Positions 538-55,619 are shown, counted from the whole stretch's first letter. The stretch is 56,874 nucleotides of DNA, filler included, from Jimgerdemannia flammicorona (GCA_003990765.1; 3 parts of 3 records of this genome joined end to end with filler, not necessarily neighbours in it), one strand, 5' to 3'. Made by a program: numbers and translations. Notes: generated by a model from the letters alone, not told the origin.

Positions 538-1484
538 ATTGCCAATGATGTCATTGTGGGTGATATCATCTTGTTTGGCAGTAGTGGGGGCTATTCAATC
601 TATAACATTCTCTTCCACAAAATAAGGAACAAATGTGGAGTCTTGGAGAGATCTAACCTAGATGCTGGGGCCTTGGAATGCTGAGATCAATCTTTGCATG
701 AATTTATCTGGGTTATTCTGAAGAATGGAATACCAGAAGTCCTCTATCTTATTACTATTGAGGGTGATAGTAGACTGAGCCTCTGTGGCCACTATGTCCT
801 CCAGTGTATTGGTATAGTGAGCTGCTAGTTCCTTGAAGTCTGAGATCCTAGTATATATACTCCAAGTTGGGGATCAACTATAGTGCATATCAGAAGACCT
901 GATAAATCTTCTTTAATATTCTTATTTCATATATATCTATAGGAGTGACATCTTGAATCTCCTGAGAACTGGCCTGAGGAAACTCCCAGCAGAGGAGGTT
1001 TTCTATTTCATACTCCTGCCATATCCAGAGGCATTCAGTAGCAATGGTGATCCTTGTTTCCATTTTACAGCAGTAGAGAATATAATGATAAAGGTCACCA
1101 GTACTCAGATTGAGACTAGAAGACCTTCTTGTATAGATCTCCATAGCTCTTCTAGTGTCTTGAAATATCCTATCCTGGACTGAGGGGCCTTGGTGGTTCC
1201 TGGACCTTGAGGTTTGGTGAGCAGCAGATATTTTGTTTATAGTAAGTCTTTAGAACTATTTCTGTGAGCTTTGTTTGGATTACAGCTACTGCAGTTTCTT
1301 GATCCTTCTTTTATATTTCTCAAGATATCTGTCTTATGATCATGATGACTCATAGTTAGTCATCCTTACTTATCATATAGCCTGGGTAAGTCATGCCATA
1401 TGATCTTCTTGTGCTCTGATCTAGTGACTTATAAGGAAAGGCTATCTCCTGTTCTGATATCATCATTCTGAGATCACTGTTACA
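538..1484 (-). repeat. E1 3' LTR (interrupted at 537)
   Basis: Aligns to 7799-8741. Starts TGTAACAGTGATCTCAG on the minus strand, directly after the purine tract TTCAGGAGAAAGA. Confidence 0.9.
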
Positions 1485-7126: not shown

Positions 7127-8741
7127 TGTTACATAGTGGTTGCTGAGTCCTCCAAATATGTTAGATTCTCTCCAAGATATATCTCTTAGACTAACTACAA
7201 GTTTGTTATAAGCAAGTTCTTATTGGAGTATCTTTCTAAGAGCTTATAGTTCTCAAACTTCTTATCTTTAAACTGTCTTGTTATCTCTTAGATTGCTTGC
7301 ATGGAATTGAGGGTAAGTGAACTTGACTGACTTTATTTTAAAGTAAATAAGAGAATATTTATACAAAATATAATTCAATGATTACTAAGTTATAAAGCTA
7401 AATATAAATTCCAATTACTAAATAAAATACTGAAACACAAAAAACTATGGTTATAAGTACAAGTTCAAGTATCTATACAAATAGTTGCACAAGTTCAGGA
7501 TGTCAGTAGAATTTCAGTAGTACAGGAAAAGGATACCAGAAGAATTTCTGAGTTACATAAGATCAGAATGCCAGAAGAATAACAGTTATACAGAAAAAGG
7601 ATACTGGTAGAATTCAGTGTTACTAAGAACTTAAAGCAAAATGTTCAGAACTATAGAGACTTCATCTTTGTTACTATCATCAAGGCCAGAGGTCAGAGAC
7701 AGGATGTCTTTGAAGAAGATGAGGTCCATGAATATTTTGTCTATTTCATATATGTTGCACATTTCATATACTTCATGCATGTCATATGGGATGACATCAT
7801 TACCGATAATATTATTGCCAGTGACATCATCTCATTCAGCAGTAGCAGGGGCTCTCCAATCTATAACATTCTCTTCCACAAAATAAGAAACAAATGTAGG
7901 ATCTTGGGGAGGTCTAATCTGGATGCTGGGGCCTTGGAATACTGAGATCAATTCTTGCATAAATTGATCTGAGTTGTTCTAGAAGATGGAATATCAGAAG
8001 TTCTCTATCTTATCACTATTGAGAGTAATAGTAGACTGAGCCTCTGTGGCCACCATGGCCTCCAGTATATTGGTGCAGTGAGCTGATAGTTCCTTGAAGT
8101 CTGAGATCCTAGTATACTCCAAGTTGGGGATCAACTATAGTGTATGCCAAAAGATCTGATAAATCTTCTTTACTATTCTTATTTCATATATATCTATAGA
8201 GATGGCATCTTGAATCTCCTGGGGACTGGCCTGAGGGAATTCCCAGCAGAGAAGGTTTCCTATTTCATACTCCTGCCACATCCAGAGGCATTCAGTAGTA
8301 ATAGTGATCCTTGTTTCCATTTTACAGCAGTAGAAGATATAATGATAAGGGTTATCAGAACCCAGATTGAGGCTAGGTGTTCTTTTTATATGGGTTCTCA
8401 TAGCTCTTCTGATGTCTTGGAACATTCTATCCTGGATTGAGAGGCTTTGGTAGTTTCTGGACCTTGAGGTTTGGCAAGTGGTAGGCATTTTTTTTATAGT
8501 AAGTCTTTAGAACTATTTCTGTGAGCTTTGCTTGGATTGCTACTACTGTGGTTTCTTGATTTTTCTTTTATATTTCTCAATATGTCTATCTTGTGGTCAG
8601 GATGACTCACAGTTAGTCATCCTTGCTCATCTTGTAGTCTGGGTGAGTTATGCTGTATGATCTTCTTATGCTCTAATCTGGTAACTTATAAGGAAAAACT
8701 ATCTCTTATGCTAATGTCATCATTCTGAGATCACTGTTACA
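7127..8741 (-). repeat. E1 5' LTR (~1.6 kb, contains accessory ORF)
   Basis: TGTAACA...TGTAACA termini on the minus strand, followed by ACTTGGT and a leader similar to E2's leader. Confidence 0.88.
7631..8488 (-). pseudogene. LTR-encoded accessory protein of E1 (~285 codons when premature stops are read through)
   Basis: One frame from MPTTCQ (8488) to TAA (7631), broken only by stops explicable as C>T/G>A changes. Second partial copy at ~538-1230. Homologous to 46226-47049. Confidence 0.8.
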
Positions 8742-15659: not shown

Positions 15660-16050
15660 ATGGCCCAGTGAGCCATTGAAAGACAGTGGTGTTCCACCAA
15701 GTCACCAACAATGGAAGAATCCTTTGACAGTATCCAGAGTATAGTGCAAATACACTTATTATGAATCTCACATTTCAAGGCCTACCAGAACCGAACTAAG
15801 TTCCAGGAATACTTCAAGTTGGGACAGCTACTGAATTCAAGACTGAAGATGGGAAAAGAAGACTGGATTAGAGAATGTCAGCTCTCCTACACTCAGATTA
15901 CAATTGCAAAAAGAGTGCACAAGTTATTCAAAGACGACAAGTCAGCCTTAGCCCATTTCTGAGAAGTAACCTCCAGAAGACTTTGTATATGTCAAGAGAC
16001 AACATTGGAAGGATGTAATGACATAAATTGCACAGTATAAGAAAATACAA
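15660..16050 (+). pseudogene. E2 3' accessory ORF, distant homolog of the E1/E3/E4 accessory protein
   Basis: Translates ...KFQEYFKLGQLL...ITIAKRVHKLFKDDKSALAHF*EVT..., lying between IN and the PPT. Probable frameshift near 15980. Confidence 0.6.
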
Positions 16051-17869: not shown

Positions 17870-17901
<32 letters not shown>

Positions 17902-18566: not shown

Positions 18567-18568
18567 TA

Positions 18569-21578: not shown

Positions 21579-21720
21579 AGCTTATTCAGAGTACTAACTA
21601 TACTATATATACTATACTATAATAAATTATGATAAAAATCAGCTTAATAGAGTAGAGTTAGCTGGCTATTGACTTTATGTATTTAAGAAGGAGTAGTAGT
21701 TAAGTATAAGAGAGAGATAG

Positions 21721-23790
21721 TGTAAGCACACAACCCCCAAGCTACTGAAATCACATGTCACTCTTTGAACAAGCCACCAAAATCACATGTGACCTCTGAA
21801 CAAATCTGGAGATCACCTGCTTGATCATGAAGCTGAGTTAAACTGAAGTCACAGTGTATAAAGCTGAGTCAACATGAAGTCACAGAACACAAGATTTACA
21901 CAAATAGAATCTTACTAATCAGGACCAAATGCATATACATATATCAAGTACTGAGATATGTCAAAACAGAGAACTAAAACAAACAATAACCATAACTTCT
22001 GAATATATACAAATATAACCACCAAGATCTACAATTGCATCCATACTGACATTTGGAATGCTATTGTCAACTGAGCCACACTCCCTCTGCCCCTCATGAA
22101 TATCCATAGTCTAGTACCCCTCTACTTCATGGAAGCCTGATGGAATGCTCTGAACATGCTTAACGAGACCTATTAGATCAGACAAATCTCAAGCTACTAC
22201 CAGATTGGCTGCCTTCTGGAAGACATAGTTGAACACCACCATGATACAGACATTACTCAGATATCTCAACACCAGAAGCTCATTGCCCACAAATACTGAG
22301 AACTCTTCTATGAGTACAGCACCTTTATTCCCTACCTCTAAGTTACAATCAGTGAAATGGTTACTACTCTGTCCTACAGCTAAATAGATGACATGATACA
22401 AGAACTCAATCACAAGTACCTCAAATATGTGGAAACCACAGACAGAACCTTCCCATACCTGAACGACTATATCCTGCAAATGCCTCAAGTTGAATACATG
22501 ATGAAGGACATCTACGATATAATCTACTTTGATGAAGATAAAGCAGAAGACAATGATCCCTCTGACACTGACATGACCTCAAGCCAAGGATCCCTGCCAA
22601 CCCTGATCATGCTACCAACCTTGCTAATGAACTTACAATAGTTTATAACCATATATGAGACTTATTGGGACAATGACCACTGGTATAAATACTAACCCAT
22701 GTTCACCTCTAATTACTTCAACTATAATGAAGAGACCAGAGAACACAATCTGTACCTTCAGACAATCCTTGAGTTTAAACCAACAACTCCACCACCTGAG
22801 TATGAGTGATATGAACCACAGCCACCAGCCTACTACAACCCTGTGACTCATAGTGCTGTAACTTATAGAAGGTATGCAGACAGCGAATCTGATGAAAATG
22901 AAGACAATGCACCACTCCTTTACCCACTAACATCTTATCCAGTATACAAGACAGACGATGCAATCCTGTGGGATGGAGATGAAGTTCCAATATATTATTA
23001 CCTCAGTGAACAAGGAGAAGTAATCTGCGAACTACTTTTCCTAGATGACTACTTCATCAGAGATGATGTCATTGATGGTAATGTTATCAAAGACTACCCA
23101 GACAGTGTCTAAACCTATAAATAGCTTAGCAGTCATAGTATAGTTAGATTAGTCTTATATGACATGACTGTGAACTGACTCAGCAGTCAGATGATCTCTT
23201 GACATATCAGATCACACTTATACTATATGACTGTATTTCGACTCAGCAAGGCACTTAGTGCTACATCCATATTTAGCATAGTCCAGATAGCCTCTCACTA
23301 GTATAAATACCCCCTCCCTCAGACCATAGAATCTCAGACCTGAATATTCTGAACATAACTTCTGAGTACTTTCCCACAATATCTCTTCACACAACTACTC
23401 CTAGTATAGTAATATCATAAATAGCAAATAAATCTATTTAATAACCCACAAAACACTCTTAAGTAAATCTACTCCCCATTAGGTCCCTCTCCTAACTCTA
23501 TTATGAAATTTCCTAATTGGGTATTGTCTGTAGTGATATGTCAATTCAACTGAGCTAGTCTTAGTTTCTTGAACTTCCTAAAATATGGAAAATCCTAAAT
23601 ATCCAGAACTAGTCCAAAAAAGGACTTTGGTTGAGACATCAACCTGATCTTGAAATCAATAAGCATAGAGGACATACTCCATATGAAATTGATCTTGACC
23701 TTAAGAAAATGGTCTTCCAGAACATCCAGAACTTCCAGAAAACCCTTCCAGAACTATGTAATGATTACTCTAAAAAGCAACCCTCTTACA
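21721..23790 (+). repeat. E3 5' LTR
   Basis: Direct repeat of 35601-37663, differing mostly by transitions. Confidence 0.95.
21958..23112 (+). pseudogene. LTR-encoded accessory protein of E3 (384 codons when stops are read through)
   Basis: ATG 21958 and track ORFs 22393 and 22843 share one frame, with only transition-type stops. Contains SYYQIGCLLE...HQKLIAHKY*ELFYEYSTFIPYL and an acidic tail. Second copy at ~35834-36985. Confidence 0.8.
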
Positions 23791-35600: not shown

Positions 35601-37663
35601 TGTAAGCACATAATCCCCAAGCCACCAAAATCACACATCACCCTCTGAACAAGCCACCAAAATCACATGCGACCTCTCAACAAATCTGGAGATTACCTGC
35701 TCAATCACAAAGCTGAGTCAAACCAAAGTCACAGCACACAAAGCTGAGTCAACACGAAGTCACAGAATACAAGATTCACACAAACAGAATCTTACCAATC
35801 AGGACCAAATGTATATATACTGAGCACCAAGACATGTTGAAACAGAGAACCAAAACAAACAACAACCACAACTTCCAAACATACACAAATATGACCACCA
35901 AGATCTATGACTGCATCCATGCTGACATTTGAAATACCATTGTCAACTAAGCCACACCCCCTCTACCCCTCATGAATATCCATAGCCTAGCACCCCTCTA
36001 CTTTATAGAAGCCTGATGGAATGTCCTGAACATACTTAATGAGGTCCACCAGATTGGACAAATCTCAAGCTACTACCAGATCGGCCGCCTCCTGGAAGAC
36101 ATGGTTGAACACCACCATGATATAGACATTACTCAGATGTCTTAACACCAGAAGCTCATCACTTACAAATACCGAGAACTCTCCTATGAGTACAGCATCT
36201 TTATTCTCTACCTCCAAGTTACTATCAGCGAAATGGTTGCTACTCTGTCCTATGGCCAAATAGATGATATGATACAAGAACTCAACTACAAGTACCTCAA
36301 ATACATGGAAACTACAGACAGAACCTTCTCACACCCGAATGACCATATCCTGCAAATGCCTCAAGTTGAATATGTGATGAAAGATGTCTACGATATAATC
36401 TGTTTTGATGAAGATGAAGTAGAAGACAACAATCCCTCTGACACTGACATGACCTCAAGCCAAAGATCTCTACCAACCCTGATCACACCACCAATCTTGC
36501 TGATGAACTTACAATAGTTCCTAACCACATATGAGACTTATTGGGACAATGACCACTAGCATAAATATCAACCTATATTCACTCTCAATTATTTCAACTA
36601 TAATGAAGAGACCAGAGAACACAACCTGTACCTTCAGATAACTCTTGAGTTTGAACCAACAACTCTATCATCTAAGTACAAGCAACATGAATCATAGCCA
36701 CCAGTCTACTATTACTCTGCGACTCATAGTGCTGTAACTTATAGAAGATATGCAGACAGTGAATCCAATGAAAATGAAGACAATGTATCACTCCTTTGTC
36801 TGCCAACACCTTATCCAGCATATGAGACAGATGCAATCCTGTGGGATAGAGATGAAGTTCCAATGTATTATTACCTCAGTGAATAAGAAAAAGTAATCCA
36901 CAAACTACTTTTCCTAGATGACTACTTTATCAGAGATGATGTCATCAATGGTGATGTCATCAAAGACTACCCAGACAGTGTCTAAACCTATAAATAGCTT
37001 AGCAGTTATAGTATAGTTAGATTAGCCTTATATAATGTAACTGTGAACTAACTCAGTAGTCAGATGATCTCTTGACAAGTTAGATCACACTGTACTATGT
37101 GACTGCATTCTGACTCAGCAAGGCACTTAGTGCTATATCCATATTTAGTATAGTTCAAATAGCCCCTTATTAGTATAAATATCCCCTCCCCCAGACCTCA
37201 GAATCTTAGATCTGAACATTCTGAACACAACTTCTGAGTACTTCCCCACAATATCCCTTTATACAACTATTCCTAGTATAGCAATATCATGAATAGCAAA
37301 TAAACCTATTTAATAACCCACAAACTACTCTTAAGTAAATCTGCTCCCCATTAGGTCCCACTCTTAACCCTATTATAAAATTTCCTAATTGGGTATTGTC
37401 TGCAGCAATACATCAATTCAACTGAGCTGGTCTTAGTTTCTTGAACTTTCTGAAATACAGAAAATCCCGAATATCTAGAACTAGTCCAAAAAAGGACTTT
37501 GGTTGAGACGTCAACCTGATCTTGAAATCAATAAGCATAGAGGATATACTCCATATGAAATTGATCTTGACCTTAAGAAAATGGTCTTCCAGAACTTCCA
37601 GAACTTCCAAAAAAACTCTTCCAGAACTATATAATGGTTATTCTAAAAAGCAACCCTCTTACA
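35601..37663 (+). repeat. E3 3' LTR
   Basis: Direct repeat of 21721-23790. Confidence 0.95.
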
Positions 37664-37889: not shown

Positions 37890-37989
37890 NNNNNNNNNNN
37901 NNNNNNNNNNNNNNNNNNNNNNNNNNNNNNNNNTTAATTAATTAANNNNNNNNNNNNNNNNNNNNNNNNNNNNNNNNNNNNNNNNNNNN
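37890..37989. other. Assembly gap with artificial linker
   Basis: N-run, TTAATTAATTAA, N-run. Confidence 0.97.
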
Positions 37990-38500: not shown

Positions 38501-38705
38501 GTTGTGATATACTACTATTACTATAACTACTTTTAAGCAAGTACTTTCTCAAACTAAAGGCTTCTTGGTACATATTGTATACTAAGTCTCTAAGTAATAC
38601 CTTATTTCTCTAACTATCTAAAAGATAAGAGAGGGGTAGAAATAAGAGTTATTATAACTTAGTAGCAGCAGAATTACTAAGCCAAAAAGACATCAAGAAT
38701 ATACT

Positions 38706-39496
38706 TGTAATAGAATGATGAACGACAAATGATCACATGACCTGGCGATGACGTCATCATATGATCGAGCGCAGCATATGAATAATGAGTGACGAATGAA
38801 TGAATGATATGAAACAATGTGGAAAACAATATCCAGCTTATCCCTAACAATCAGCACCACAGCAACAGTTGCCATAGTTGCTGATCATTGCCTAGTAATT
38901 GAGGTCCTGATCATAAAGTTGTTTTTGCTAAAAACCACCTGACAAAGGTCGCGATCACAAACCTCACTATAGCTACCAAATTAGTCACTCATACTTTGGT
39001 CAGAAATCATGGACCAACTTGTATAAATACCCCCCAGTTTCTATCCAAAATAAAGTAGTTTTAGTTCAGTCCTTGATATAAGAATCAAGTCCCCCCACAC
39101 ACACATCCCCCTGAGTCTTAGTAATGACATCTAAGTGACTCTAGTGTTTCTGACTAAACTCCAGAAGCCTAGCTAACTTCTGCCAGAACTGAGACTGGTA
39201 TATAAATCCCCAAAGACTTAAGTAAACCCATTGAACCTGAATTCCAAGGCGAATTCAGTCTGTGCACAGCAAAGAACAAGACCCTCAAAATAGGGCACAA
39301 GAGAAAGACCTTTGAAACAGAAGGCAAACCAGAGAAAGACCTTTGAAAGATAAGGCACTGCCACTACAACTACTTAAGCGAGTGTTTCCTCAAACTGAAG
39401 ACTTCTTGGTACACATTGTGTACTAAGTCCCTAAGTAATAGTCTACTTCCCTCTTATCCTAAGGATAAGAGAGGGGTAGAAGTGAGAGTTATTACA
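38706..39496 (+). repeat. E4 5' LTR
   Basis: TGTAATAG...TATTACA, direct repeat of 47061-47851. Confidence 0.95.
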
Positions 39497-39499
39497 ACT

Positions 39500-42400
39500 T
39501 AGTAGCAGCGGATTACCAGCCAAGAAGGCACCAAAGAGCATACTCCTAAAGTTGGAACAAGACCAATCTTGGACAGGAGTAACCCCCAGAAACAACTGTG
39601 GATCCTCAAACCAGAGCTAGAGAAGCCCTTGCCATTAGGACCAGGTGGTACCAGGAAACCACAGACCCAAGGACCCACTAGCTTGTAATTGACCAGGCTT
39701 ACAAGGATCTATACCAGGCCTTTAGGACATACCACCCAGGACTTAGGAATATTGTTAGCCGCCATAGGTTCTACGAACTCCTCCGAGGATACATTGGAAC
39801 TACTAGGATCCCAGAATCTACTGCTGCAGCCACCCAGGATTTTCTAGATTATATTACACCCCCTGCTGCAAGAGAAGCAGCTGCCGAGTGGATTGCCTCT
39901 GACAGATATCATCATACACCAACCAAGACCTCCCTCTATTACAGGCTAGTTATACATATACTATGCCTCTGCCATAACTAGGTACGAGAACGAGCAAGCA
40001 GGTCACCCATCCCCTACTGCTGAACAAGGAGCAGGTCCATCAATCCAGCCAGAGACTGATATCCTCTTTGAAGGACCTAGTCAGTATAAGGACGCACTAT
40101 CTCATCAGGGAAGGGAGTCAGACGAAGACCCTACAGGCTACCAGTCTGACAATAGCCAATGAGGAACAGCAGGCCTAGGAATTTACCAAGGAACTACAGG
40201 TCAAGCAGATCAGACCCCAGAACCAACTCAGCCACCTATACAGAGATTTGGTTTACCCTCTCTCACAGAACTCTTTGACTTAATATCCGGAAATCAAGTA
40301 ACTCCAAGTCATACAGCCCCACAACCCCACCAAGTGGAACAATCTTCAAGAGAATCCACCCCAACAGGCCCACCACCAATAGTCAACACAATGGTAGATG
40401 CCAACATTACAGTACTGACCACCCAGCTAGCAGCACTAGCAGGGATAGTAGGACAGATTGCTGAACAGAACAAACCAACCAAGACCTTGCGAATCCCAAC
40501 ATTCAGTGGAAAAAACAGTGACATCGAAAACTTCATCAATGCAGTTGACACAGGCTACCAAGCAAACCAATGGAATGACAACTGAGTACCTATAGGAATG
40601 CTCACCAATAACCAGAACAGCACCCTTCAACAGTTGTTTGCTACATCAGCAGCACAAGTAGAAACAGTAGCCACATTCTTCACTGGAACAGCAGCCGAAT
40701 TCTGGCGAACCTTGGAACAACACCCAGTAATCTGGGAAGCCCACCCTCAAGTCAATGGATAAGTACCTAGCAACAATAGACCAGGTTGGGATGACTACGA
40801 AGCAGGCCCAGAACTCAAGGCCTTGCTACTGACCAAATTCCAAAATGCAGCCTACATATAAGAAACTTGGAACAAACTGTCCCAGATGAAGTTCCACAAG
40901 AATGGCGAAGAGGATCTAGAGACCTTTGCCACCAGAATGGATGCCTATCTCAAAACTGTTGGACTTACCTATCAGAAAAACAATCTGGCCATCAATGGTA
41001 CTAGAGCCAACCATCTCTTTGCAGCCCTACCAGACTGGCTCACCCAGAAGATCAAGGAATAAGGTCTTCCCCAAGGATGCCCCCACAACTCATGGTGCTT
41101 TGCCCAAGTACAAAGAAGAGCCTGCGAAATCCTTGCTGCACAAGCTCCACAAAACCAAGAACACAAGAAGGATAACCAAGATAGAAGAAATTCTACCAGG
41201 AGAAATGATCAAAGGAATGACCAAAGATATGATCAAAGATATGATCAAAGGAACCAGTGAAACCCCAGAGGACCCAGACCTCCCACTGAGGATGAAAAGA
41301 GGCAGCTCTGTGAAAAAGGATTGTGCTTCATCTGCAAGAAGGCAGGACACATCTCAGTCAAATGCCCCGAGAAGAGAAACAGATCAGGCAAACCCAGTAA
41401 CCAGAACATTACTGTCATTGGAGAAGGCCCAGGAAAGAAGAACCCCAAGAATGTCATCAAAGTACAGAAGATATGGTACAAGGCTACCATTCCCACTAAG
41501 ACCCACTCAACTAATGCTGGATATGACCTCTACAGCAGCCAAGACCTCACCATCCCACCAAGTACCAATGCTACAGTGCAAACAGGAATTACAATACAAG
41601 CCCCCAGAGGTACATACATCTACCTTGCTGAGCAAAGTAGCCTAGCCAAAGAGTTCAACATTGGGCTAGGAGGAGGAGTAGTTGACCAAGGATTTACTGG
41701 TGAAATCCATGTCATCTTGCGAAATTTTGGAGACACATCATTTGAAGTCAAAGCAGGCCAAAGAATTGCCCAAGCAATCATTGAAGAAATCCATCAAGAT
41801 CTCACTATTGAAGAAGTCCCCGAACTCTCCCAGACAGACCATGGCAAGAAAGAGTTTGGATCTACCAACAAACCTCTCAGTCAAAAGGTCACTACCTTGA
41901 AGGAAGATGATGAAAACTGGTACAAGAGAATTGCAGATAGTTATGCACCATGTGGATGATGCCCTCATTCCATTCGAATGTACTGCATGGAACATGTTAG
42001 TGAATGCCATGCATGCCTCTTCAAGGTTTTCAAAATCAACTCTGAAAGAAGCCAAGCTCAACAGACTGAGGAACCCAAACAAGATGACCCTCCTTGTGAA
42101 GGATGGGGAGAAACTGACTTCGAGGAGACTGACAGCAATTGGGACAACAATGAGGATGAAGAGCTCAATACCATCAAGAAGGAGGACAGTTGCATCAAGT
42201 TCACAGGCCAAGTCTACAGACAAAATGTCAATGTCTTGCTTGATAGTGGTGCTACTGGAAACTACATCAGCACCAAGACTGCTAAGAGGATTAGAGCCCG
42301 AAGCAGACCAACTACTGAGAAAAGAAGTGTTACCTTTGGTGATGAAAAGACTGCACCATTGACCAAGATCTGTGAAGACCTTTTGCTCAAAATTGGCAAA

Positions 42401-45400
42401 TATCAAGAGAAGTTGGACTTCAGCATCGTAGACCTCTCAGGACAAGAAATTATCTTAGGAAAAGCCTGGTTGACCCAGCACAACCCAGACATTAACTGGA
42501 GAACCAATGAGGTTAACCTGACCCACAAAGGCAGAAAGATCACCCTGACACCCCAGGAAGATACTAACCACCAAGGAATCAAAATCATCTCTGCCATTCA
42601 AATGAAGAGACTCTCTCAAAAAAAGGGAAACACCTACTTCATCTGTACAGTACAAGAAGTCACTGAAGCTACAAGTAGTCCAATTCCAACAGAAGCTCAA
42701 GAACTGTTTGAAGAATTCCAAGATGTATTCCAAGATCCTCAAGGACTTCCACCCAAGTGCCAAATCCAACATGGAATTGATCTTATTCCAGGATCTGAAC
42801 CCCCATACAAGAGTATTTACCAACTGGCCCAACCTGAGCTCAAGACCCTCAAGGATGAGTTGACCAAACTACTGGCCCAAGGATACATTGAACCCAGCCG
42901 CTCTCCATTTGGAGCCCCCATTCTATTTGTCAAGAAGAAGGATGGCTCTCTGTGAATGTGTATTGACTATAGAGCCCTCAACAAGATCACTATCAAGAAT
43001 CAGTATGCCTTGCCCAGGATTGATGAGTTGCTACACCAAATCTTCAAGGCCAAGACCTTTTCTCTACTGGATTTGCGAAATGGCTACCACCAGATTCTCA
43101 TTGATGAGAAGGACATTGAAAAGACAGCTTTCCGAACATGGTTTGGACACTACCAGTTCTGAGTCATGCCTTTTGGATTGACCAATGCACCAGCAACATC
43201 CCAGTATCTGATGAATGACATCTTTAGACCACTCCTCAACATCTGTGTCCTTGTGTATATTAATGATATACTAATCTACAGTGAGACAGTAGAGCTACAC
43301 TACACCCATCTCAGACAAGTACTGACTCTTCTGTGAGAACACCAGCTCTATGCCAAGATGAGCAAGTGTAAGTTCTACCAAGACCAGATTGAATACCTAG
43401 GACACATTATCTCTGCTGAAGGTATTAATGTAGACCCCTAAAAGGTATCAGCCCTTAAGGATATCCCTATCCCTACTACCCTCAAGCTACTCCAGTACTT
43501 TCTGGGTATTGCCGGTTATTACCAAAGGTTTATCCAAGGATATTCTGCTATTGCAGCCCCATTGACCAGCTTGGCCCATAAAGGAGTAAATATCAAAGCT
43601 GAATGGACCCCTGAATGCACCCTGGCTATGGACCATCTCAAGAGACTCCTTACCGAGGCCCTGGTGCTAATTGCACCTGACCCTACCAGACCATTCACTC
43701 TGACCACAGATGCCTCTGATATTGCTATTAGAGCAGTACTCAGTCAAGAAGACCACTCAGTGGCCTACCTTTCACAGAAGCTCAAGCCAGCTGAGACCTG
43801 GTATACTACTCATGAGAAGGAACTCCTGGCTATTGTCACTGCACTCCAGGAATGGCACCACTTCCTCCTAGGACAGCCATTTGTAGCCTACACTGATCAC
43901 CATGCACTGCAGTATATTCACATACAGCCCATGCTGACCCACAGACAAGCCCGCTGGATGGAAATCATTGCCAACTTTGATATGGAAATCAAGTATATCC
44001 CAGGCAAAACCAATTGTGTGGCTGATGGTTTCTCCAGATACATGGAAGACGAACTTGTCTTCATGGTCAAAGTAATTGGAGACCTTATCCAAATGATCAA
44101 GGATGGCTACCAGCAAGATAGCCCCCTGATGAATTTCCTTCAATTCTGCCAAGACCTAGAGGCTGAGGTTCCAGAACCCATGAGGCAAATGGCCAAGAGA
44201 TTCACCTACCATGATGGACTTATCTACAGGGACCATGACAGAGTGGTTGTACCCAACAATGATACTCTGCAACTCAAGATCATGCAGGAACTCCGTGATA
44301 CTCCTACAGCAGGACACTTTGGTTTTGAAAAGACCTACAACCTCCTCTCAAGAGAGTTCTACTGACCAAAGATGACCAAGGATATCAAAGACTTTGTGGC
44401 CTCATGCAAGATGTGCCAAAGGTTCAAAAGTGGTAACAAGCTACCAGCAGGACTCCTGCAACCCTTGCCTATCCTGAGTCACAATTGGGACCAGATTGCA
44501 ATAGACTTCATTGTCCAACTCCCCAAGACCAAGGCAGGATGGGATGCCATTATGGTATTCATGGACCGCCTAAGTAAGCAAGCCCATTTTGTACCCACTA
44601 AGACCACTGCTACAGCATCAGAGATTGCCAAGATTTTCCTCAATCAAGTATTCAGGCTACATGGTATGTCTAGCACTATTGTATCTGACCGAGACACCAA
44701 GTTTATAAGCAACTTCTGAAAGGTATTTTTCTCCCTCCATGGAACCAAGCTGAAGTTCTCTACTGCCTACCACCCTCAGACTGACAGTCAAACTGAGCAA
44801 ACAAACAGGACTCTTAAACAGATGCTGAGCATCTTCTGCTGTTACAAGCAAAATGATTGGGACAAGTACCTAGCCCATGCTGAGTTTGCCTACAACAACA
44901 GTCAGCAAACCTCCACAAAGAAGACTCCATTCTTCCTGAACTATGGCCAACACCTAAGGACCCCAAGTACTACCGCGAAATCAGCAGTCCCAGCAGCCCA
45001 AGATCTGGCCAAGACCATTTCTGACCTCACCCGAATGACAAGAGATGCTCTCATAGAAGCACAAGACTACCAGACCAAGTATGCGAACTTGAAGCAAAGA
45101 GAAGCCTCCTACAATATTGGTGACAAGGTCATGCTTAGAACAGACCACCTCCACCCAGACACCCTGGCCCAACAACCAGCCAAGAAACTCTATGCTAGAA
45201 GAATTGGACCATATAAGATTGTGGAAAAAATCAGCGAAGTCAACTACAAGTTGCAACTTCTCTACAATATCCGAGTACACCCAGTATTCCATATCAGCCA
45301 ATTGGTGGACTACCATGAGAACCCATTCTCCAAGTATACAGTTCCACCACTACCCCCAATTAGGATCAATGATCATGAGGAATTCAAAATTGAGGAAGTA

Positions 45401-45583
45401 CTTGACCACAAGGTCTGCAAATATCCCAAAACAGTCAAGTGCTTTTTCCTGATCAAGTGGAAGGGTTACCCCACCCATGATGCTACCTGGGAAAAAGAAG
45501 AAGCCCTGAAGAATGCACATGAAGCCCTCCAGGACTACATGGAAACACTCACCCCCCAGCAAAGGAAGAAACTACAGCTCTAA
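39500..45583 (+). pseudogene. E4 extended gag-CCHC-dUTPase-ZnF-PR-RT-RH-IN-chromodomain
   Basis: Track ORFs 40334, 41321, 41978, 42956, 43562, 44372 and 44822 share one frame. Motifs [44 protein letters not shown] and FLIKWKGY. Start position uncertain. Confidence 0.93.
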
Positions 45584-46153
45584 GCATAGGAGCATACAGC
45601 GAGCAGAAGGATACCATATATTTTATCTGGAAACATATAATACCAAACATTGTGAAAAAAGGAACACTATAGATAACCAATAAGAAGATACTAAGCAAAA
45701 GAACAATCTAGTACAGTACAGCAAAATACATTTGAACAACTCCATTTCATGCCATCTGTGTCATCTCTGCAGGATGATGACGGATGCTTCATGTGAAACT
45801 TAGGAAAGCCGACAATGTCGAAACCAGTCTAAGTCCATCCATGTGACAGATATTGTTACTAGGAATTGCCTCAGATTACAAGAAAAGTCTATTTCCAAGA
45901 GGTTCGAACCTCCAGCCATGACAATGGGAGCCCTTGCCCTAGACAAGGATGGCTAGTCCTCGCAAATGTGCCAACCAGACAAAAAAAAAGTGGACCAAGA
46001 CCTGTTAACCCTGTGTAACCACAACTATGGGTGATGAGATCTTTGAAATCAGAATTTTCTCATGTGACCAGCACATGCTCTGCTTATAGCACAGGTCATA
46101 CATTTTGCCAGAAAGCGTGACCAAAGGAAGGTCACATCAGATGGGTGAATAAG

Positions 46154-46161
46154 TATAAATA
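46154..46161 (+). promoter_or_regulatory. Internal TATA box upstream of the E4 accessory ORF
   Basis: TATAAATA ~70 bp before ATG 46226, conserved in E5 (~54213) and preceded by decayed E-box-like CACATG/CATGTG motifs. Confidence 0.55.
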
Positions 46162-46225
46162 CCCAAGGCAAGAATACCCCGCAACTCTCATCTCCCTTTC
46201 CTCACAAAGAAAAGACAAGACAAGA

Positions 46226-47049
46226 ATGCCTGCCACCTGCCACCAAACTGCCCGCCATAGCCAGCCCCTCCCAAGCCAGGTTGACTGCCTCTTTGGACAC
46301 ATCCAGGTTGCTATCCAAGGAAGGAACTGCCACTCAGAGGCCCTTAACCTCTCCAGCTCAGACCTAGGACAGTATGTCCTTGACTGCTGTGAAATTATTG
46401 AAAGAGCCTACCTTGCTACCAGCCACCTAGAAATCTGGCACGAATATGAAATCGGTCACCAGCTCCTCCAACATATAAGTGGCCTACCTACAGACCAGAT
46501 CTCTGACTGGACCCACCTAGACAGGCATGAGCAAAGACTTGCTAAGAAGGTCCATCAAATCATGTGCCATGCACCCTTCGCGATCCCCAACCTCAACTAC
46601 ATACAACTAAAGGACTTCCAGAACCTCTCTTTCCTGAGGTCGATGACCTAGAGATCAAGGTAGCCCAAGAAGCCAACTTCTGGATCACCCCTAAGTCTAT
46701 TGACTGCGAACCCTACTGGAGCCCCCTCCTGAATGACAACCCTGACCAATGGCTCCAAGGTCTCTCTGACCTCTTTGAAGGACCACCTATTCAAATGGAT
46801 ATTCCCAGGCATGAAGATCAAGAGCCCTACTTGGATGGCCCCAACCACATCAGATGGAGAACTCCTACACCTATTCCAATGCAAGAACCATTTGCAGACC
46901 TCATTGACTTCTCCATCCTGGACAGCGAGCCATCTGCAACCACCAACCCCCCTACCTCTGAAGAAGAGAGTAATGACCCTGAGGAGGATTCCCCACCTTT
47001 CTCTCCCCTGGTTCTCAATTTCTCAATCAACGAGGACATTGATTTCTAA
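46226..47049 (+). pseudogene. E4 accessory protein (~274 aa after repairing a 1-bp deletion)
   Basis: Track ORFs 46145 and 46564 join at ~46632; the E5 copy reads NLSFSKIDELE in frame there. The stop codon abuts the PPT. Homologous to the E1 LTR ORF over more than 200 aa. Confidence 0.85.
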
Positions 47050-47060
47050 GGGGGGAAGGA

Positions 47061-47851
47061 TGTAATAGAATGACAAACGACAAACGATCACATGACCCGG
47101 TGATGACGTCATCATACAATTGAGTGTGGCATATGAATAACGAGTGATGAACGAATGAATGATGCAAAACGACATGGAAAACGATATCCAGCTTATCTCC
47201 AACAATCGGTGCCACAGCAACAGTTACCATAGTTGCTAATTATTGCCTAGTAATTGAGGTCCTGATCACAAAGTTGTTTTTGCCAAAAACCACCTGATAA
47301 AGATCGCGATCACAAACCTCACTATAGTTACCAAATTAGTCACTCATACTTTAGTCAGAAATTATGGACCAACTTGTATAAATACCCCTCAGTTTCCATC
47401 TGAAATAAAGCAGTTTTAGTTCAGTCCTTGATACAAGAATCAAGTCCCCCCACACACACATCCCCCTGAGTCTTAGTAATGACATCTAAGTGACTCTAGT
47501 GTTTCTGACTAAACTCCAGAAGCCTAGCTAACTTCTGCCAGAACTAAGACTGGTATATAAATCCCCAAAGACTTAAGTAAACCCATTGAACCTGAATTCC
47601 AAGGCGAATTCAGTCTGTGCATAGCAAAGAACAAGACCCTCGAAATAGGGCACAAGAGAAAGACCTTTGAAACAGAAGGCAAACCAGAGAAAGACCTTTG
47701 AAAGATAAGGCACTGCCGCTACAACTACTTAAGCAAGTGCTTCCTCAAACTGAAGGCTTCTTGGTACACATTGTGTACTAAGTCTCTAAGTAATAGTCCA
47801 CTTCCCTCTTATCCTAAGAATAAGAGAGGAGTAGAAGTGAGAGTTATTACA
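47061..47851 (+). repeat. E4 3' LTR
   Basis: Direct repeat of 38706-39496. Confidence 0.95.
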
Positions 47852-48219
47852 ATACTCCTGAGAAGTTAGAATAAGACTAATCTTAGACAGGAGTAACCCC
47901 CAGAACCAACTATAGATTCTCTAGAAACAAACCCCCAAACCAGAGCCAGACAAGTCTTTACTATTAGAACCAGATGGTACTAGAAAACCACAGACCCAGG
48001 GATCCACTATCTTATAATTGACCAAATATATAAGAATTTATACTAGGTCTTTAGAACTTTCCACCCAGGTCTTAGGAATATAGTCAGCTACTGTAGGTTC
48101 TATATACTTCTCTATAGCTACCTTGGAACTACTAGGACTCAAGAATCTACTGCTGTAGCCACTCAGGAATTTCTGGATTATATCTTACCTCTGTTGCAAG
48201 AGAAGTAGCTGCTAAGTGG

Positions 48220-48314
48220 GTGGGGAGGGGGATCTGAGGGGCATTGGTTGAAATGGATGAGGGCATTTATGTATTATCTATAGAATGTGCGTAATAAAGG
48301 GAAGTCCAAGTGAC

Positions 48315-48348
<34 letters not shown>
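48220..48348 (+). mobile_element. Short 5'-truncated polyadenylated retroposed insert (LINE 3' end)
   Basis: AATAAA at 48293, ~30-nt poly(A), and a 21-bp TSD AGAGAAGTAGCTGCTAAGTGG (48199-48219 and 48349-48369). Absent from E4. Confidence 0.9.
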
Positions 48349-48354
<6 letters not shown>

Positions 48355-51300
48355 GTAGCTGCTAAGTGGATTGTATCTGATAGATACTATCATACTCCTA
48401 TCAGGACCTTCCTCTACTACAGGTTAGTTGTTTACTATATCTCTACTATAACAAAATATAAGAACAAGCAAGCAGACCACCCATCTCCTACTGCTGATCA
48501 AGAAGCAGATTCATCTATTCAGCCAGAATCTGATATCCTCTTTGAAGGACCTAGTTAGTATAAGGATACACTATTTCATCAGGAAAGGGAGTCAGATGAA
48601 AACTCAGAAGGATACTAGTCTGACAATAGTTAACAAGAAACAGCAGGTCTAGGAATTTATCAAGAACCTATAGATCAAGAAGATCAGACCCCAGAACTAA
48701 TATATTATCTATACAGAGGTTTGGTTTACTCTCTCTCACAGGACTGTTTGATCTGATATCTGGAAATCAAGCAACTCCAAGTCATACAACACCACAACCT
48801 CACCAGGCAGAACAATCTTTAAGAGAATCTACCCTCATAGACCCATTACTAATAATTAATACAATAGTAGATATCAATATTATAGCTCTAACTATCTAGC
48901 TAGTCACACTAGCAGAGATAGTAGGATAAATTGCTGAATAGAACAAACCAACCAAGATCTTGAGAATTTCTACTTTTAGTGGAAAAAACAATGATATCAA
49001 AACTTTCATCAATATAGTTAATATAGGATACTGAGTAAACCAATGAAATAATAACTAAGTACCTACAGGAATACTCACCAATAACTAAGACAATACTCTT
49101 CAATAGTTATTTGTCACATCAGCAGTACAAGTGAAAACAGTAGCAATATTCTTTACTAGAATAGTAGCTGAGTTCTGATATATTTTGGAAGAATATCCAG
49201 TAATCTGGAAAGACTGCTCTCAAGTTAATGGATAGATAACTACCCATAACAGACTAGGTTAGAATAACTATATAGTAGGCCCAGAACTCAAGGCTCTACT
49301 ACTGACCAAATTCTGAAATACAGCTTATATATAAGAAACTTAGAACAAACTGACCCAGATAAAGTTCTACAAGAATAGTAAGAAGGACTTAGAAATCTTT
49401 GCTACTAGGATGGATATCTATCTCAAAACCATGAGACTTATCTACTAGGAAAACAATTTGGCCATCAATAGTACTAGAGCTAATTACCTCTTTATAGCCC
49501 TACTAGACTGGCTTACCTAGAAGATTAAAGAATAAGGTCTCTCCTAAGGATATCTCCACTACTTATAGTACTTTGCCCAAGTATAAAGAAGAGTCTATAA
49601 AATTCTTACTATATAGGTACTATAAAATCCAGAATACAAGAAGGATAACTAAGATAGAAGAAATCTCATCAGGAGGAATGATCAAAGAAATAATCAAAGG
49701 AATGACTAAAGAAACCAGCAAAACTCTAGAGAACCAAGACCCCCTACTGAGGATAAAAAGAAGTAGCTTTGTGAAAAAGGATTGTACTTTATTTACAAAA
49801 AGACAGAACACATCTCAGTCAGATACTCTGAAAAGAGAAACAGACCAGATAAATTCAATAATCAGAACATCACTATCATTAGAGAAGGCTCAGAAAAGAA
49901 GAATCTTGAGAATATTATCAAAGTGCAGAAAGTATAATATATGGCTATCATCTCTACTAAGACCCATCTCACTGATACAGGATATAATCTCTACAGTAGC
50001 CAAGATCTTACTATTCTACCATATACTAATACTATAGTGCAAACAGAGATTGCAATACAAGCTCCCAAAGAAATGTATATCTATCTTGCTGAGTGAAGTA
50101 GTCTAGTCAAAGAATTCAACATTGGGCTAGAAGGAAAAGTAGTTGACCAAGGATTTACTGGTGAAATCTGAATTATCTTATAAAATCTTAGAGACACCTC
50201 ATTTGAAGTCAAAGTAGGTCAAAGAATTGTCCAGACAATTATTGAAGAAATCTGTCAAGATCTTACTATTAAAGAGTCTCTAAACTCTCCCAGATAGACC
50301 ATAGCAAGAAAGAGTTTAGATCAATCAATAAACCCCCTAGTCAAAAGGTTACTATCATGAAGAAAGATGATAAAAACTAGTATAAGAGAATTGCAGATAG
50401 TTATGTACCATATAGATAATACTCTCATTCTATCTAAATATATTATATGAAATATATTTGTAAATATCATGCATACCTCTTTAAAGTTTTCAAAATTAAT
50501 TCTAAAAGACACCAAGCCTAACAAATTGAGAAATCTAAACAAGATTACTCTCTTTGTGAAGGATGGAAAGAGACTGACTTTGAGGAGACTGATAGCAACT
50601 GGGATAATGAAGATGAAGAACTCAATACTATCAAGAAGAAGGATAGCTATATCAAATTTACAGACCAAGTTCACAGACAGAATATTAATGTCTTACTTAA
50701 CAGTAGTACTACTGGAAACTATATCAGTACTAAGACTATCAAGAGAATTGGAGCCAGAAGCAGACCAGCTACCAAAAAAAGAAGTGTTATCTTTGATGAT
50801 AGCAAGACTACATCTTTGACCAAAATCTGTAAAGATCTATTACTAGGATTGGCAAATATCAAGAGAAGTTAGATTTCAGTATTGTGGATCTTTTAGAACA
50901 AAATATTATTCTAAGAAAAGCCTGTGACCCAGTATAACTCAGATATCAACTAGAGGACCAATGAGATTAATCTGATCTATAAAGATAGAAAGATCACTCT
51001 GATACCTCAGGAAGATATCAACCATCAAGGAATCAAAATTATCTCTACCATTCAAATGAAGAGACTCTCTTACAAAAAAGGAAATTTCTACTTCATCTGT
51101 ACTACATAAGAAGTCACTGAAGCTCTAAGTAGTCTAATCTTATTAGAAGCTCAAGAATTGTTTGAGGAATTCTAAGATATATTCTAGAATTCCCAAGAAC
51201 TTCCACCCAAGTACCAAATCCAATATGGAATTGATCTCATTCCAGATTCTGAACCTCCATACAAGAGTATCTACCAGCTGGCCCAACCTAAACTCAAGAT

Positions 51301-54288
51301 CCTTAAGAATGAGTTGACCAAACTATTGGCCCAAGGTTATATTGAACCCAGCTGCTCTCTATTTGGAGCCTCTATCATATTTATCAAGAAGAAGGATAGC
51401 TCTCTGCAAATGTGCATTGACTATAGAGCTCTCAATAAGATCACTATTAAGAACTAGTATGTCTTGCCTAAGATTAATGAGTTATTACACCAGATCTTTA
51501 AGGCCAAGACTTTTTCTCTACTGGACTTGTGAAATAGTTACTACTAGATTCTTATTGATGAGAAGAATATTGAGAAGACAGCTTTCTGAATATAGTTTGG
51601 ATACTATTAGTTCTGAGTCATGCCCTTTGATTTGACCAATATACTAGCAATATTTTAGTATCTAATGAATGATATCTTTGGACCACTGCTCAACATTTGT
51701 ATCCTTATGTATATTGATAATATATATACTAATCTATAGTGAAACAGTAGAGCTATACTATACCTCCCTCAGGCAGGTACTAACTCTTCTATAAGAACAC
51801 CAGCTCTATGCCAAGATGAACAAGTATAAGTTTTATCAAGACCAGATTGAGTATCTAGAATATATATACTACCCATAAGAAGGAACTCCTGGTCATTGTC
51901 ACTGCACTCTAGAAATAGTATTATTTTCTCCTAGGATAACCATTTGTGGCCTACACTGATCACTATACTCTGCAGTATATTTACATATAGCTTATGCTAA
52001 TCTACAGACAAGCCTATTGAATGAAAATTATTGCCAACTTTGATATGGAAATCAAGTATATTCTAGACAAAACCAACTATATAGCTGATGGTTTCTTCAG
52101 ATATATAGAAGACAAACTTATCTTCATAGTTAAGATAATTAGAAATCTTACTCAGATGATCAAGGATAACTACTAACAGAATAGTTCCCTAGTGAAATTC
52201 CTTAATTCTACTAAGACCCAGAGGCTGAGGTTTCAGAATCCATGAGGCAAATGTCCAAAAGATTCACTTACTATGATGGACTTATCTACAGAGACTATAA
52301 CAGAGTGGTTGTATCTAATAATAATACTCTGTAGCTCAAATCATGCAGAAACTCTATAAAACTTCTGCAGTAGGACATTTTGGTTTCAAGAAGACCTACA
52401 ACCTCCTCTCAAGAGAGTTCTATTGACCAAAGATGACTAAGAATATCAAATATTTCATAGTCTCATATAAGATATACTAAAGATTTAAAAGTAATAACAA
52501 GCTATCAGTAGGACTTCTGTAATCTCTGCCTATTCCAAGTTATAACTAGGATTAGATTGCAATAGACTTCATTGTCTAGCTCTCCAAGACTAAGACAGGA
52601 TAAGATACCATTATAGTATTTGTAGACTACCTAAGTAAATAAGCCCATTTTGTACCCACTAAGACCACTACTACAGTACTAGAGATTGCCAAGATCTTTC
52701 TCAACTAAGTATTTAGACTATATAATATATCTAGCACTATTGTATCTGACTGAGATATGAAGTTTACAAGTAACTTCTAAAAGGCATTCTTCTCTCTCTA
52801 TAGAACTAAGCTGAAGTTCTCTACTATCTACTATCTTCAGACTAATGGACAGACTGAGTGAACCAATAGGATCCTCAAGCAGATGCTCAGCATCTTCTGC
52901 TATTACAAGTAAAATAATTAGAATAAGTACTTAACTTATACCAAGTTTGCTTATAATAATAGCCAGCAAATCTCTATAAAGAAGACCCCATTCTTCCTGA
53001 ACTATGGTCAACACCCAAGGACCTAAGCACTATTGTAAAATTAGTAGTCCCAGTAGTCCAAGATCTAGTTGAGACTATTTCTGATCTTATGTAAATGATA
53101 AGAGATACTCTCATAGAAGTATAGAACTACTAGACTAAGTATGTAAACTTAAAGTAAAGAGAAGTCTCATATAATATTAGTAATATAGTTATACTTAGAA
53201 CAGATCATCTCTATTCAGATACTCTAGCACAACAACCAGTCAAGAAACTCTATGCTAGAGGACTATACAAGATTGTGGAAAAAGTCAGTAAAGTTAACTA
53301 TAAGTTGCAACTTCTCTATAATATTTAAGTATATCTAGTATTCTATATCAGTCAATTGGTGAACTACCATGAGAACCTATTCTCCAAACATATAGTTTCA
53401 CTACTATCCACAATTAGAATCAATGATTACAAGGAATTTGAAATTGAGGAAGTACTTGATCACAAGGTTTACAAATATATCAAAACAGTCAAGCAGTTTT
53501 TTCTTACTAAGTAGAAGAGTTATTCTACCTATGATACTACCTAGAAAAAAGAAAAAACTCTGAAAAATATATATAAGGCCCTCCAGGACTACATGGAAAT
53601 ACTCACTCTCTAGCAGAGAAAGGAACTGCAGCTCTAAATCTAGAGTATATAGTAAAGAAAGAAGATATTATATATTTATATGAGATATAAAATACTAAAT
53701 ATTACAGAAAAAAGGAATACTATAATTAATTAATAAGAGGATACTCAGATGAAGAATAACTCAGCAAGATGTAGCAAAATGTATTTGAATAACTCTGTTT
53801 CATATCATCTATAATATCTTTACTAAATAATGATAAATGCTTCATATAAAACTTAAAAAAGCCAACAATGTTGAAACCAATCTCAGTCTATCTATATGAC
53901 AGATATTGTTACTAGAAATTATCTCAGATTATAAAAAATACTATTTCTAAGAGGTTTGAACCCCCAGTCATGACAATGAGAGCTCTCACCTTAGACAAAG
54001 ATAGTTAGTTCTCACAAATATATGTACTTATAAGATAAAAAAAAAAAAAGAGTAAGATCTATCAACTCTGTATAACTATAACTACAATGTAGTGATATCT
54101 TTGAAATCAGAATTTTCTTATATAACTAATATATATCCTACTTACAGCAATAGGTCACACATTCTACTAAAAAATATAATTGAAATAAAGTCATACTGAA
54201 TAGGTGAATAAGTATAAATATTCAGGGCAAGAACATATTGCAATCTCTATCTCCCTCTCCTCTCTTCAAAGAAAAGACAAAACAAGAA

Positions 54289-54788
54289 TATGTATCTGCT
54301 ACCTACCACCAAACAGTCTACTATAGCTATCCCCTCCCAAGCCAGGTTGACCACCTCTTTGAATACATTCAGATTGCTATTTAAGGAAGAAACTGCTGTT
54401 CTGAGGTCCTCAACCTCATTAGCCAGGACCTAGAACATTATATCCTCAACTGCTATAAAGTTATCAAAAGAGCCTACCTTACTATCAGTTACCTAGAAAT
54501 CTGATATAAATATAAAATTAGCCATCAACTTCTTCAATGTGCAAATAGTCTACCTACTGACCAGATCTCAGACTGGACTAATCTGGATAAGTATAAGCAA
54601 AGACTAGCTAAGAAGGTCTATCAAATCATATACTATATACCTTTTGCAATCCTCAATCTTAACTATATATGACTGAAGGACTTTCAGAACCTCTCATTCT
54701 CTAAGATTGATGAACTAGAGATCAAGGTTGCCCAAGAAGCCAACTTCTAGATTACTTTCAAATTTACTAACTATAAACTCCACTAGAG
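54289..54788 (+). pseudogene. E5 copy of the accessory ORF, truncated by an insertion
   Basis: Colinear with 46226-46720. Confidence 0.8.
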
Positions 54789-55522: not shown

Positions 55523-55619
55523 TGCTGGCAAAGTCTGAGCAGTTTTCTAACTTCTAATATTATCAGTTTCAAAGGTGTTATCACTTCTATCTTTTGCAAG
55601 ATTAAGGCTATCCTTGGTG

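Follow-up and report, generated by a model that had tools for sequence, protein, structure and literature searches.

ORF-X, a conserved accessory gene of Gypsy retrotransposons with its own putative promoter and a variable place relative to the long terminal repeat

What kind of gene is the open reading frame (ORF) that lies between pol and the 3' long terminal repeat (LTR) of the retrotransposon E4a in DNA of Jimgerdemannia flammicorona (GCA_003990765.1), and is it shared by the other elements of the same 56,874-nucleotide stretch, called the window here? The original prediction, made from the sequence alone, held that this ORF, named ORF-X here, belongs to an unrecognised accessory gene family present in four Gypsy families, E1 to E4 (E4 in two copies, E4a and E4b), of two reverse transcriptase (RT) lineages. 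ORF-X was found at 46226-47049 on the plus strand as claimed, from the ATG at 46226 to the TAA stop codon at 47047-47049. A 1-base insertion or deletion (indel) near 46635 splits it over two frames, a frameshift that the prediction did not mention; one extra base is present at this site in E4b, in the metagenome locus L001 and in one contig of run-X1, resulting in read-through. The ORF sits past the pol stop codon (45583) and ahead of the polypurine tract (47050), as a sense-strand ORF outside gag-pol within an element whose LTRs, primer-binding site (PBS), polypurine tract and target-site duplication (TSD) were all mapped, which is the position of an accessory, or third, ORF. An extension of pol was ruled out, since E4a and L001 both have in-frame stop codons ahead of the ATG.

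A search of the window with the E1 ORF-X protein (tblastn) gave E 1.4e-20 at 46226-46630, and the intact homologue P0003 matched E1 ORF-X by BLASTP with 5e-41 (36% identity over 190 amino acids, gap-free). The E1 and E4 proteins had been claimed to be alignable, and on these alignments, directly and through P0003, their homology is beyond doubt. The blocks LE..VA.EA, N.DQ, F.GP.I and I.WR.P, said to be common to E1 and E4, were indeed found in the family alignments, and a six-frame scan of the window with the family hidden Markov model (HMM) returned matches at the expected places only. Uninterrupted ORF-X was found in separate public contigs (P0003, P0008, P0016, P0009, P0010, P0015 and the 291-residue ORF of L001), with P0017 as a further intact relative; intact ORFs are thus present in at least five separate contigs. 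For E4a and its intact relative in L001, the ratio of nonsynonymous to synonymous substitution rates (dN/dS) was 0.19 in frame, with dS 1.47, and 1.12 and 1.52 in the shifted frames of the same alignment. The alignable DNA of these two loci consists of the ORF (70.7% over 625 nucleotides) and a 42-nucleotide block of stop codon, polypurine tract and LTR start only; the upstream spacer and the LTR are not alignable, and the non-coding LTR parts of E1, E2, E3 and E4 have no significant similarity in common. The ratio, far from 1, together with the intact copies in other records, bears out the protein-level selection that had been proposed, as do the unalignable flanks the proposal that the surrounding DNA is unrelated between families. 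Conservation of the protein between copies whose flanks have diverged past alignment is the behaviour of an accessory ORF, and ORF-X is a protein-coding accessory gene kept by purifying selection.

The family is rarely met in databases. A HMMER scan of 1,835,955,588 representative proteins gave six matches at E <= 0.001, all of them short metagenome "hypothetical proteins", none (0/6) fused to pol. A word-based search with the family alignment passed 2 of 2029 candidates, both among the relatives already found, and a scan of metagenome loci with the narrower alignment A7 confirmed one of 196 pattern matches, namely L001. Among viral contigs, none of 73 pattern matches was confirmed. Such rarity would follow from the way gene callers treat transposon ORFs, which they mask or skip.

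Membership of E3 and E2 is a different matter. By profile comparison (hhalign), the E3 ORF matched ORF-X in the N-terminal domain with P 0.0039 (129 colinear columns), and this P fell from 0.049 through 0.02 as intact sequences were added; the E2 ORF region (15654-16055) matched with P 0.0029 over 58 columns, after 0.053 with fewer intact sequences. None of 198 column shuffles of E3 reached the observed score of 29.2 (mean 14.4, standard deviation 2.7, maximum 25.2), nor did any of 169 residue shuffles of E2 reach 26.2 (mean 12.5, standard deviation 2.35, maximum 22.1). The intact E3-type proteins P0013 and P0014 confirm the 385-codon length of the E3 ORF, and P0013 matched P0017, P0009 and P0008 by BLASTP at colinear positions (E 0.001, 0.001 and 0.008), as E2 matched P0003 (E 0.019). 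In the six-frame scan the next matches after E1 and E4 were exactly the E3 and E2 sites, with negative scores. The E3 and E2 window copies gave no significant BLASTP match to E1 and E4, and with a profile built from outside sequences only, E3 went unreported and E2 scored no better than a match at 12873-12820. The likeness of E3 is restricted to the N-terminal 130 or so residues, and its C-terminal half differs. Taken together, these comparisons make E3 and E2 probable remote relatives of ORF-X in the N-terminal domain only. Of the four families predicted, E1 and E4 are firm and E3 and E2 suggestive by their statistics; the N-terminal likeness claimed for E1, E3 and E4 is remote for E3; and the profile comparison that had been named as the check came out in favour, the BLASTP of the window copies and the negative HMM scores against.

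The gene appears to be part of a cassette that starts with a promoter. TATA[AT]A occurs seven times in the 9148 nucleotides examined for E4a, six times in the LTRs and once at 46154, shortly before the ATG of ORF-X, while the 1535 nucleotides of L001 have a single occurrence, 80 nucleotides before the ATG. A TATA lies upstream of the ATG also in E4b (-79) and in both LTR copies of E1 (-84). The chance of a TATA in a 41-nucleotide interval at the element's own density was 0.031 for E4a, 0.026 for L001 and 0.12 for E1. The leader from TATA to start codon is free of ATG in E4a, E4b, L001 and the 5' LTR copy of E1; the only TATA-like word within the E1 leader is TATAAA at -10, which has no ATG in it. 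E1 and L001 resemble each other over the final 25 or so nucleotides ahead of the ATG, and TGAGTCA sites occur upstream of the ORF in E1 and E3.

Past the ORF, an LTR core of TATA and, 26-27 nucleotides on, AATAAA was found at 7363/7337 in E1 and 47377/47404 in E4a, 268 and 328 nucleotides past the ORF stop codon, respectively. The polypurine tract and LTR start follow the ORF in E4a, E4b, L001 and E2. In E1 and E3 the LTR starts about 250 nucleotides before the ATG (ORF at +254 and +252), with the cassette in U3; as the polypurine tract precedes the cassette there, the gene lies in U3 and is carried twice per element. Since the post-ORF LTR core is shared, the two arrangements differ only in the place of the polypurine tract and LTR start. 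Embedding through duplication of the 5' part of the LTR was considered and rejected, as the LTR sequences on the two sides of the ORF show no similarity, and an E2-type remnant ahead of the E1 polypurine tract was rejected on poor alignment.

The placement in E1 depends on where its LTR ends. Past the point at which its two LTR copies cease to match, the E1 tail still aligns with the E4 tail (F.DLI.F ... VLN), and for this reason the true LTR end was sought. The 5' LTR was found to end at 7127 with ...TGTAACA, followed directly by the PBS ACTTGGTATTCATTG, which is near-identical to the E2 PBS; E1 ORF-X therefore lies wholly inside the LTR. A second lookalike of LTR end plus PBS (TTTATA followed by ACTTAGTAATCATTGAA) was noticed at 7380-7400 on the minus strand, about 265 nucleotides upstream of the real end at 7127/7126, and may be an old duplication or recombination scar inside the E1 LTR. 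At the other end of E1, about 11 tandem units of 33 nucleotides (192-554) stand in place of the 3' LTR end, and on the minus strand these repeats extend the ORF as PSLTRPGIIRH repeats.

The similarity among the ORF-X proteins does not follow that among the polymerases. E1 and E2 are close relatives (67.7% DNA identity over 4188 aligned positions of the pol region), and E2 keeps a faint remnant at a different position. The RT of E4a is 49.5% identical to that of E3, 41.9% to E2 and 38.2% to E1, and its integrase core 49% to E3 and 30% to E2, so that the RTs of the carriers fall into two groups, as predicted. ORF-X identity is 35-36% between E4 and E1 and about 15-17%, in the N-terminal domain only, between E4 and E3. 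E5 is a mosaic in which an E4-like piece from ahead of the ORF (82% to 45730-46022) is fused to an E3-like 3' part of an LTR (89.5% to 23063-23788) with only the last ORF codons left between them; the letters of its junction recur in a run-X2 contig, where they form a loose end. The mismatch of ORF-X with RT and the E5 mosaic point to recombination that may have shuffled 3' modules, with unequal evolutionary rates as the alternative.

What does the protein look like? ORF-X encodes a soluble protein of about 275-340 residues. Its helical N-terminal domain (about 135 residues; isoelectric point, pI, 6.8-9.2) is followed by a central domain of about 90 residues, acidic and conserved, with LE..VA.EA, DN.DQ.LQ.L...F.GP.I and I.WR.P, and by a very acidic tail of poor model confidence in which F-x-D-L-I-x-F and P-x-[VI]-L-N-[FI] recur as hydrophobic motifs amid acidic residues. 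The pI of central domain plus tail is 4.1-4.4, and the acidic tails that had been claimed were confirmed (pI 4.1). A membrane segment was not found in seven proteins, whose top 19-residue Kyte-Doolittle means were 0.59-1.46, and the N-terminus is polar. An env-like ORF3 of the Gypsy/errantivirus or Athila type, for which a signal peptide and a membrane anchor would be required, was accordingly ruled out, in agreement with the prediction that no transmembrane segment would be seen (highest mean 1.46).

Identification failed at each level. With two window pieces, no Pfam family was reported at E <= 10; with eight homologues, six had no match and two had sub-threshold, unrelated matches only; and with 17 alignment members, ATG5_HBR was returned in two (best E 0.018) and three other families in one each. 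The same library detected retroelement domains in the pol ORFs of the window, and no Pfam gag, protease, RT, RNase H, integrase, chromodomain or dUTPase was matched by ORF-X, so the family is as unrecognised as had been stated. A PDB sequence search returned one chance match (E 1.5) and, with the profile, none; the ESM Atlas returned unnamed or unrelated clusters only (0.91-0.94, with few shared features). AlphaFold2 models reached a mean predicted local distance difference test (pLDDT) score of 45.8 for the full length (9 rows) and 59.0 for residues 1-225 (17 rows), and structural comparison, which had been proposed as a check, gave no usable match: Foldseek had its best E at 0.59 against PDB and 0.27 against BFVD viral structures, and VIA-align against 48,161 chains its best Z at 3.9, where winged-helix regulators at Z 2.3-3.0 were taken as noise and not counted as evidence. 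In the full-text literature, including the parts of PMC2864245 and PMC3248453 that were available, no description of the family was found, GyDB, REXdb and Repbase being outside the search. Compared with Pfam, PDB and this literature, the protein family appears to be new.

Based on this anatomy, a model is put forward tentatively in which ORF-X is a real accessory gene with its own promoter cassette and a trans-acting regulator or adaptor as product, most likely an activator. The promoter at the upstream TATA would drive ORF-X and give a 3'-coterminal, subgenomic RNA terminated by the poly(A) signal of the LTR, while LTR-embedded copies would also be transcribed from each LTR. The LTR boundary would have shifted across the cassette, leaving the ORF internal in E4 and E2 and in U3 in E1 and E3. 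The product would act in trans on the element, presumably as an activator of its own promoters with the acidic, hydrophobic tail as a putative activation domain. Activation is placed first because of the helical folded domains, the acidic hydrophobic tail and the layout with an internal promoter, which resembles that of the foamy virus gene tas; in this ranking, a host-factor adaptor or counter-silencing function would come second and RNA export third. The domain layout and likely promoter are compatible with the earlier idea of a trans-activator or anti-silencing factor and are no test of it.

Several observations weigh against this model. All ORF-X copies in the window are damaged by stop codons or a frameshift. 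DNA that is AT-rich and hypermutated often contains TATA-like words, the own-density chance being 0.12 in E1, and of the two E3 LTR copies just one has the TATA at -101, which may be a product of hypermutation. The N-terminal domain is only weakly basic, no clear nuclear localisation signal was seen, and the low-confidence models, Foldseek and VIA-align gave no assignable fold, DNA-binding or otherwise. Acidic tails with hydrophobic motifs are equally compatible with SUMO-binding, Atg8-binding or export signals. Finally, the E5-type arrangement exists without ORF-X, so that the gene is not needed in cis.

The rival that survives best, although it is itself rather unlikely, makes ORF-X an adaptor to host factors, its tail motifs being docking sites (SUMO-interacting, Atg8-interacting or similar) and the protein not a transcription factor; the effect would be escape from silencing or degradation, or tethering of particles or of the integration complex. 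The tail is strongly acidic, F-x-D-L-I-x-F after acidic residues, D-D-V-I-D-D and P-x-[VI]-L-N-[FI] recur in three subfamilies, Foldseek and VIA-align found no DNA-binding fold, and the repeats of this genome are heavily hypermutated, so that counter-defence would pay. The SUMO- and Atg8-binding reading was made by eye from consensus patterns that are assumed here to apply, and such short motifs fit many consensus patterns by chance; moreover, pure docking leaves two conserved folded domains, about 225 residues, unexplained.

A post-transcriptional regulator in the manner of Rev, Rex or Rem, in which an arginine-rich N-terminal helix binds the element's RNA and a hydrophobic C-terminal motif exports the RNA in unspliced or subgenomic form, seems improbable. 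Its appeal lies in the basic first helix (E1 type, ..IRRAMRTRSRR..; E4 type, ..IKSAMRERNHR..), the most confidently modelled N-terminal part (pLDDT 86 at residues 21-30), and in the conserved leucine-rich C-terminal motif. That helix is far less arginine-rich than known RNA-binding arginine-rich motifs, however, the C-terminal motif is a loose fit to export-signal patterns, and splicing in these elements is without support. Still less probable is a role in the structure of the particle or in association with it, for instance as a chaperone or as a further capsid-like component. Recruitment of additional structural proteins does occur in retroelements, the N-terminal domain is modelled as helical, and the Atlas feature matches include a closterovirus coat family (0.91-0.93, within the chance-match range), but no gag, capsid or env family was matched in Pfam, no membrane segment is present, and an acidic, poorly modelled tail and a separate putative promoter would be unusual for a gene needed in bulk. 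That ORF-X is a mere passenger, a captured host gene fragment or once-functional ORF decaying neutrally and of no use to the element, would account for the broken window copies, the recurrence of the ORF-less E5-type arrangement in a metagenome contig and the rarity of the family (6 clusters in 1.84 billion representatives), but can hardly be reconciled with a dN/dS of 0.19 against off-frame values above 1, intact ORFs in at least five separate contigs and an ORF conserved between flanks diverged past alignment.

A bolder extension of the activator model, for which the odds are clearly unfavourable, would regard these elements as "complex" retrotransposons with a self-contained trans-acting regulatory gene, made up of its own promoter, the ORF and the LTR poly(A) signal, captured into U3 in two lineages and, through recombination, exchanged between RT lineages. 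The trans product would switch on the LTRs of the family or block host repeat silencing, and with the cassette in U3 every LTR, solo LTRs included, would be a stand-alone gene for the factor.

How does ORF-X compare with known systems? In foamy viruses, Tas is encoded by an accessory gene that lies downstream of pol and env and has an internal promoter; the protein has a DNA-binding N-terminal part and an acidic activation C-terminal part, and switches on the LTR. ORF-X is like tas in being an accessory gene in the 3' part of the element with, as its anatomy suggests, its own promoter. It differs in that no Pfam, PDB-sequence or BFVD match was obtained (best E 0.27; model pLDDT 59) and in that its element is a retrotransposon without env, probably with a fungal host. 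The sag gene of mouse mammary tumour virus is an ORF in U3 of the LTR, whose product is a type II membrane glycoprotein. The ORF-X of E1 and E3 is likewise a coding ORF in U3, and hence in both LTRs, but with no membrane segment and no Pfam family at E <= 10 it is not assigned to Sag. VANC proteins are anti-silencing factors of the Arabidopsis VANDAL transposons; like them, ORF-X is a fast-evolving, transposon-encoded accessory protein that could be of use where the genome attacks repeats, but VANC belongs to DNA transposons, and Pfam and sequence searches returned no match. Extra ORFs also occur in the plant Tat/Ogre elements.

The closest precedents are the additional ORFs of Ty3/Gypsy elements, which like ORF-X lie on the sense strand close to the 3' LTR and apart from gag-pol, are conserved within their families and have no known domain; a figure legend of the 2010 fungal chromovirus survey lists "add. 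ORF ... with unknown function" (PMC2864245). Against that legend, to which this comparison is confined, ORF-X goes further in its statistical link across RT groups, its putative promoter and its placement either in the LTR or internally. Extra ORFs in Ty3/Gypsy are thus already known, and what is likely to be new is the protein family, its probable own promoter and its variable place relative to the LTR boundary. Extra genes turn simple retroelements into complex ones, and very few outside the retroviruses have a known role. ORF-X is small, conserved, apparently self-expressed and without recognised relatives, and the genome around its elements hypermutates repeats. Should it regulate the element or counter silencing, it would offer a tractable case of a transposon managing its host; LTR-embedded copies would then let solo LTRs still make the trans-acting protein, and the bolder extension, if true, would amount to a Tas/Tax-like system outside the retroviruses. 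Even as an ordinary ORF, it belongs in transposon protein libraries, where it would end "hypothetical protein" calls.

The layout of the window was derived from self-comparison, terminal sequences and Pfam scans of 56 long ORFs (Table 1). E4a is inserted in the leader of E4b, directly past the E4b PBS, and the apparent tandem array is a nested insertion. A dUTPase was detected by Pfam in E1, E3 and E4a, and in E2 by tblastn with the E4a dUTPase segment; E4a also encodes a chromodomain (Pfam). For a few fungi, the 2010 survey reports a dUTPase domain in their elements (PMC2864245). The carriers of ORF-X are chromodomain Ty3/Gypsy retrotransposons with dUTPase, probably of fungal origin.

Table 1. 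Positions of the elements, ORF-X copies and associated signals in the window
Feature	Position	Strand	Remarks
ORF-X of E4a	46226..47049	+	274 codons, two frames, no internal stop codon; between pol and 3' LTR
TATA TATAAATA	46154..46161	+	72 nt before ORF-X ATG; sole TATA[AT]A of E4a outside LTRs
Polypurine tract GGGGGGAAGGA	47050..47060	+	abuts ORF-X stop codon and LTR start TGTAATAG; L001 arranged alike
E4a	38706-47851	+	complete; TSD ATACT at 38701-38705 and 47852-47856
E4a 5' LTR	38706-39496	+	
E4a 3' LTR	47061..47851	+	791 bp; TATA at 47377, AATAAA at 47404
E4b	5' LTR end and PBS ~38657-38705; body 47852-54783		older, hypermutated
ORF-X copy of E4b	54292..54783	+	continuous frame across the E4a indel site; has stop codons; severed by E5 insertion
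E5	54784-55912	-	3' region or LTR fragment, chimeric; inserted into E4b ORF-X
E1	5' LTR 8741->7127; 3' LTR from 1484, cut at ~530	-	
E1 5' LTR (redefined)	7127..8741	-	1615 bp; TGAGTCA at +133
E1 ORF-X	7631..8488	-	285 codons, 4 internal stops; wholly in 5' LTR, +254 to +1111
Partial ORF-X, truncated E1 3' LTR	538..1231	-	LTR breaks off at ~530 into 33-nt tandem repeats
E2	LTRs 9871-10336, 16119-16581	+	
E2 remnant	15795..15971	+	~58 residues match ORF-X N-terminal domain core; internal, before polypurine tract ~16108-16118
E3	LTRs 21707-23790, 35586-37663	+	2.08-kb LTRs
E3-type ORF, E3 5' LTR	21958..23112	+	385 codons, many stops; starts at +252 of LTR 21707-23790
E3-type ORF, E3 3' LTR	35834..36985	+	LTR 35586-37663
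dUTPase sequence	4389-4838, 12535-12969, 31145-31630, 41261-41956	-, +, +, +	upstream of protease and RT

Between repeat copies, C-to-T changes were found in the order CpG > CpA > CpC >> CpT, with site fractions of 0.25-0.78 for CpG, 0.13-0.50 for CpA and 0.09-0.34 for CpC and with CpT rare. The paired LTRs of single elements differ by 7-15%, nearly all in transitions, and LTR divergence is therefore unusable here as an insertion clock. A weak tblastn match of an E4 piece in a GC-rich island, at 19198-19628 (E 0.07 and 7.9), was without support from the family HMM.

Two pairs of identical N runs (18898-18941 and 18954-18997; 37890-37933 and 37946-37989), 44 bases each and 12 bases apart, were returned by the repeat finder as a 100% repeat and probably mark scaffold joins or masked sequence. 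The GC-rich island (18998-20000; 52.8% GC, CpG observed/expected 1.04) adjoins an extremely AT-rich stretch of 17-18% GC (17001-19000); its ORFs of 135-152 amino acids had no Pfam match, and it may represent a host gene or else a fragment that escaped mutation. Nested in E3 is an intact-looking Copia element (25961-31245) with 165-bp LTRs that are 95.8% identical and an uninterrupted gag-integrase-RT ORF of 1152 amino acids (26151-29606). Its GC content of 49% and CpG observed/expected of 1.12 show it untouched by the hypermutation of its neighbours, and the Copia element is probably young and perhaps active.

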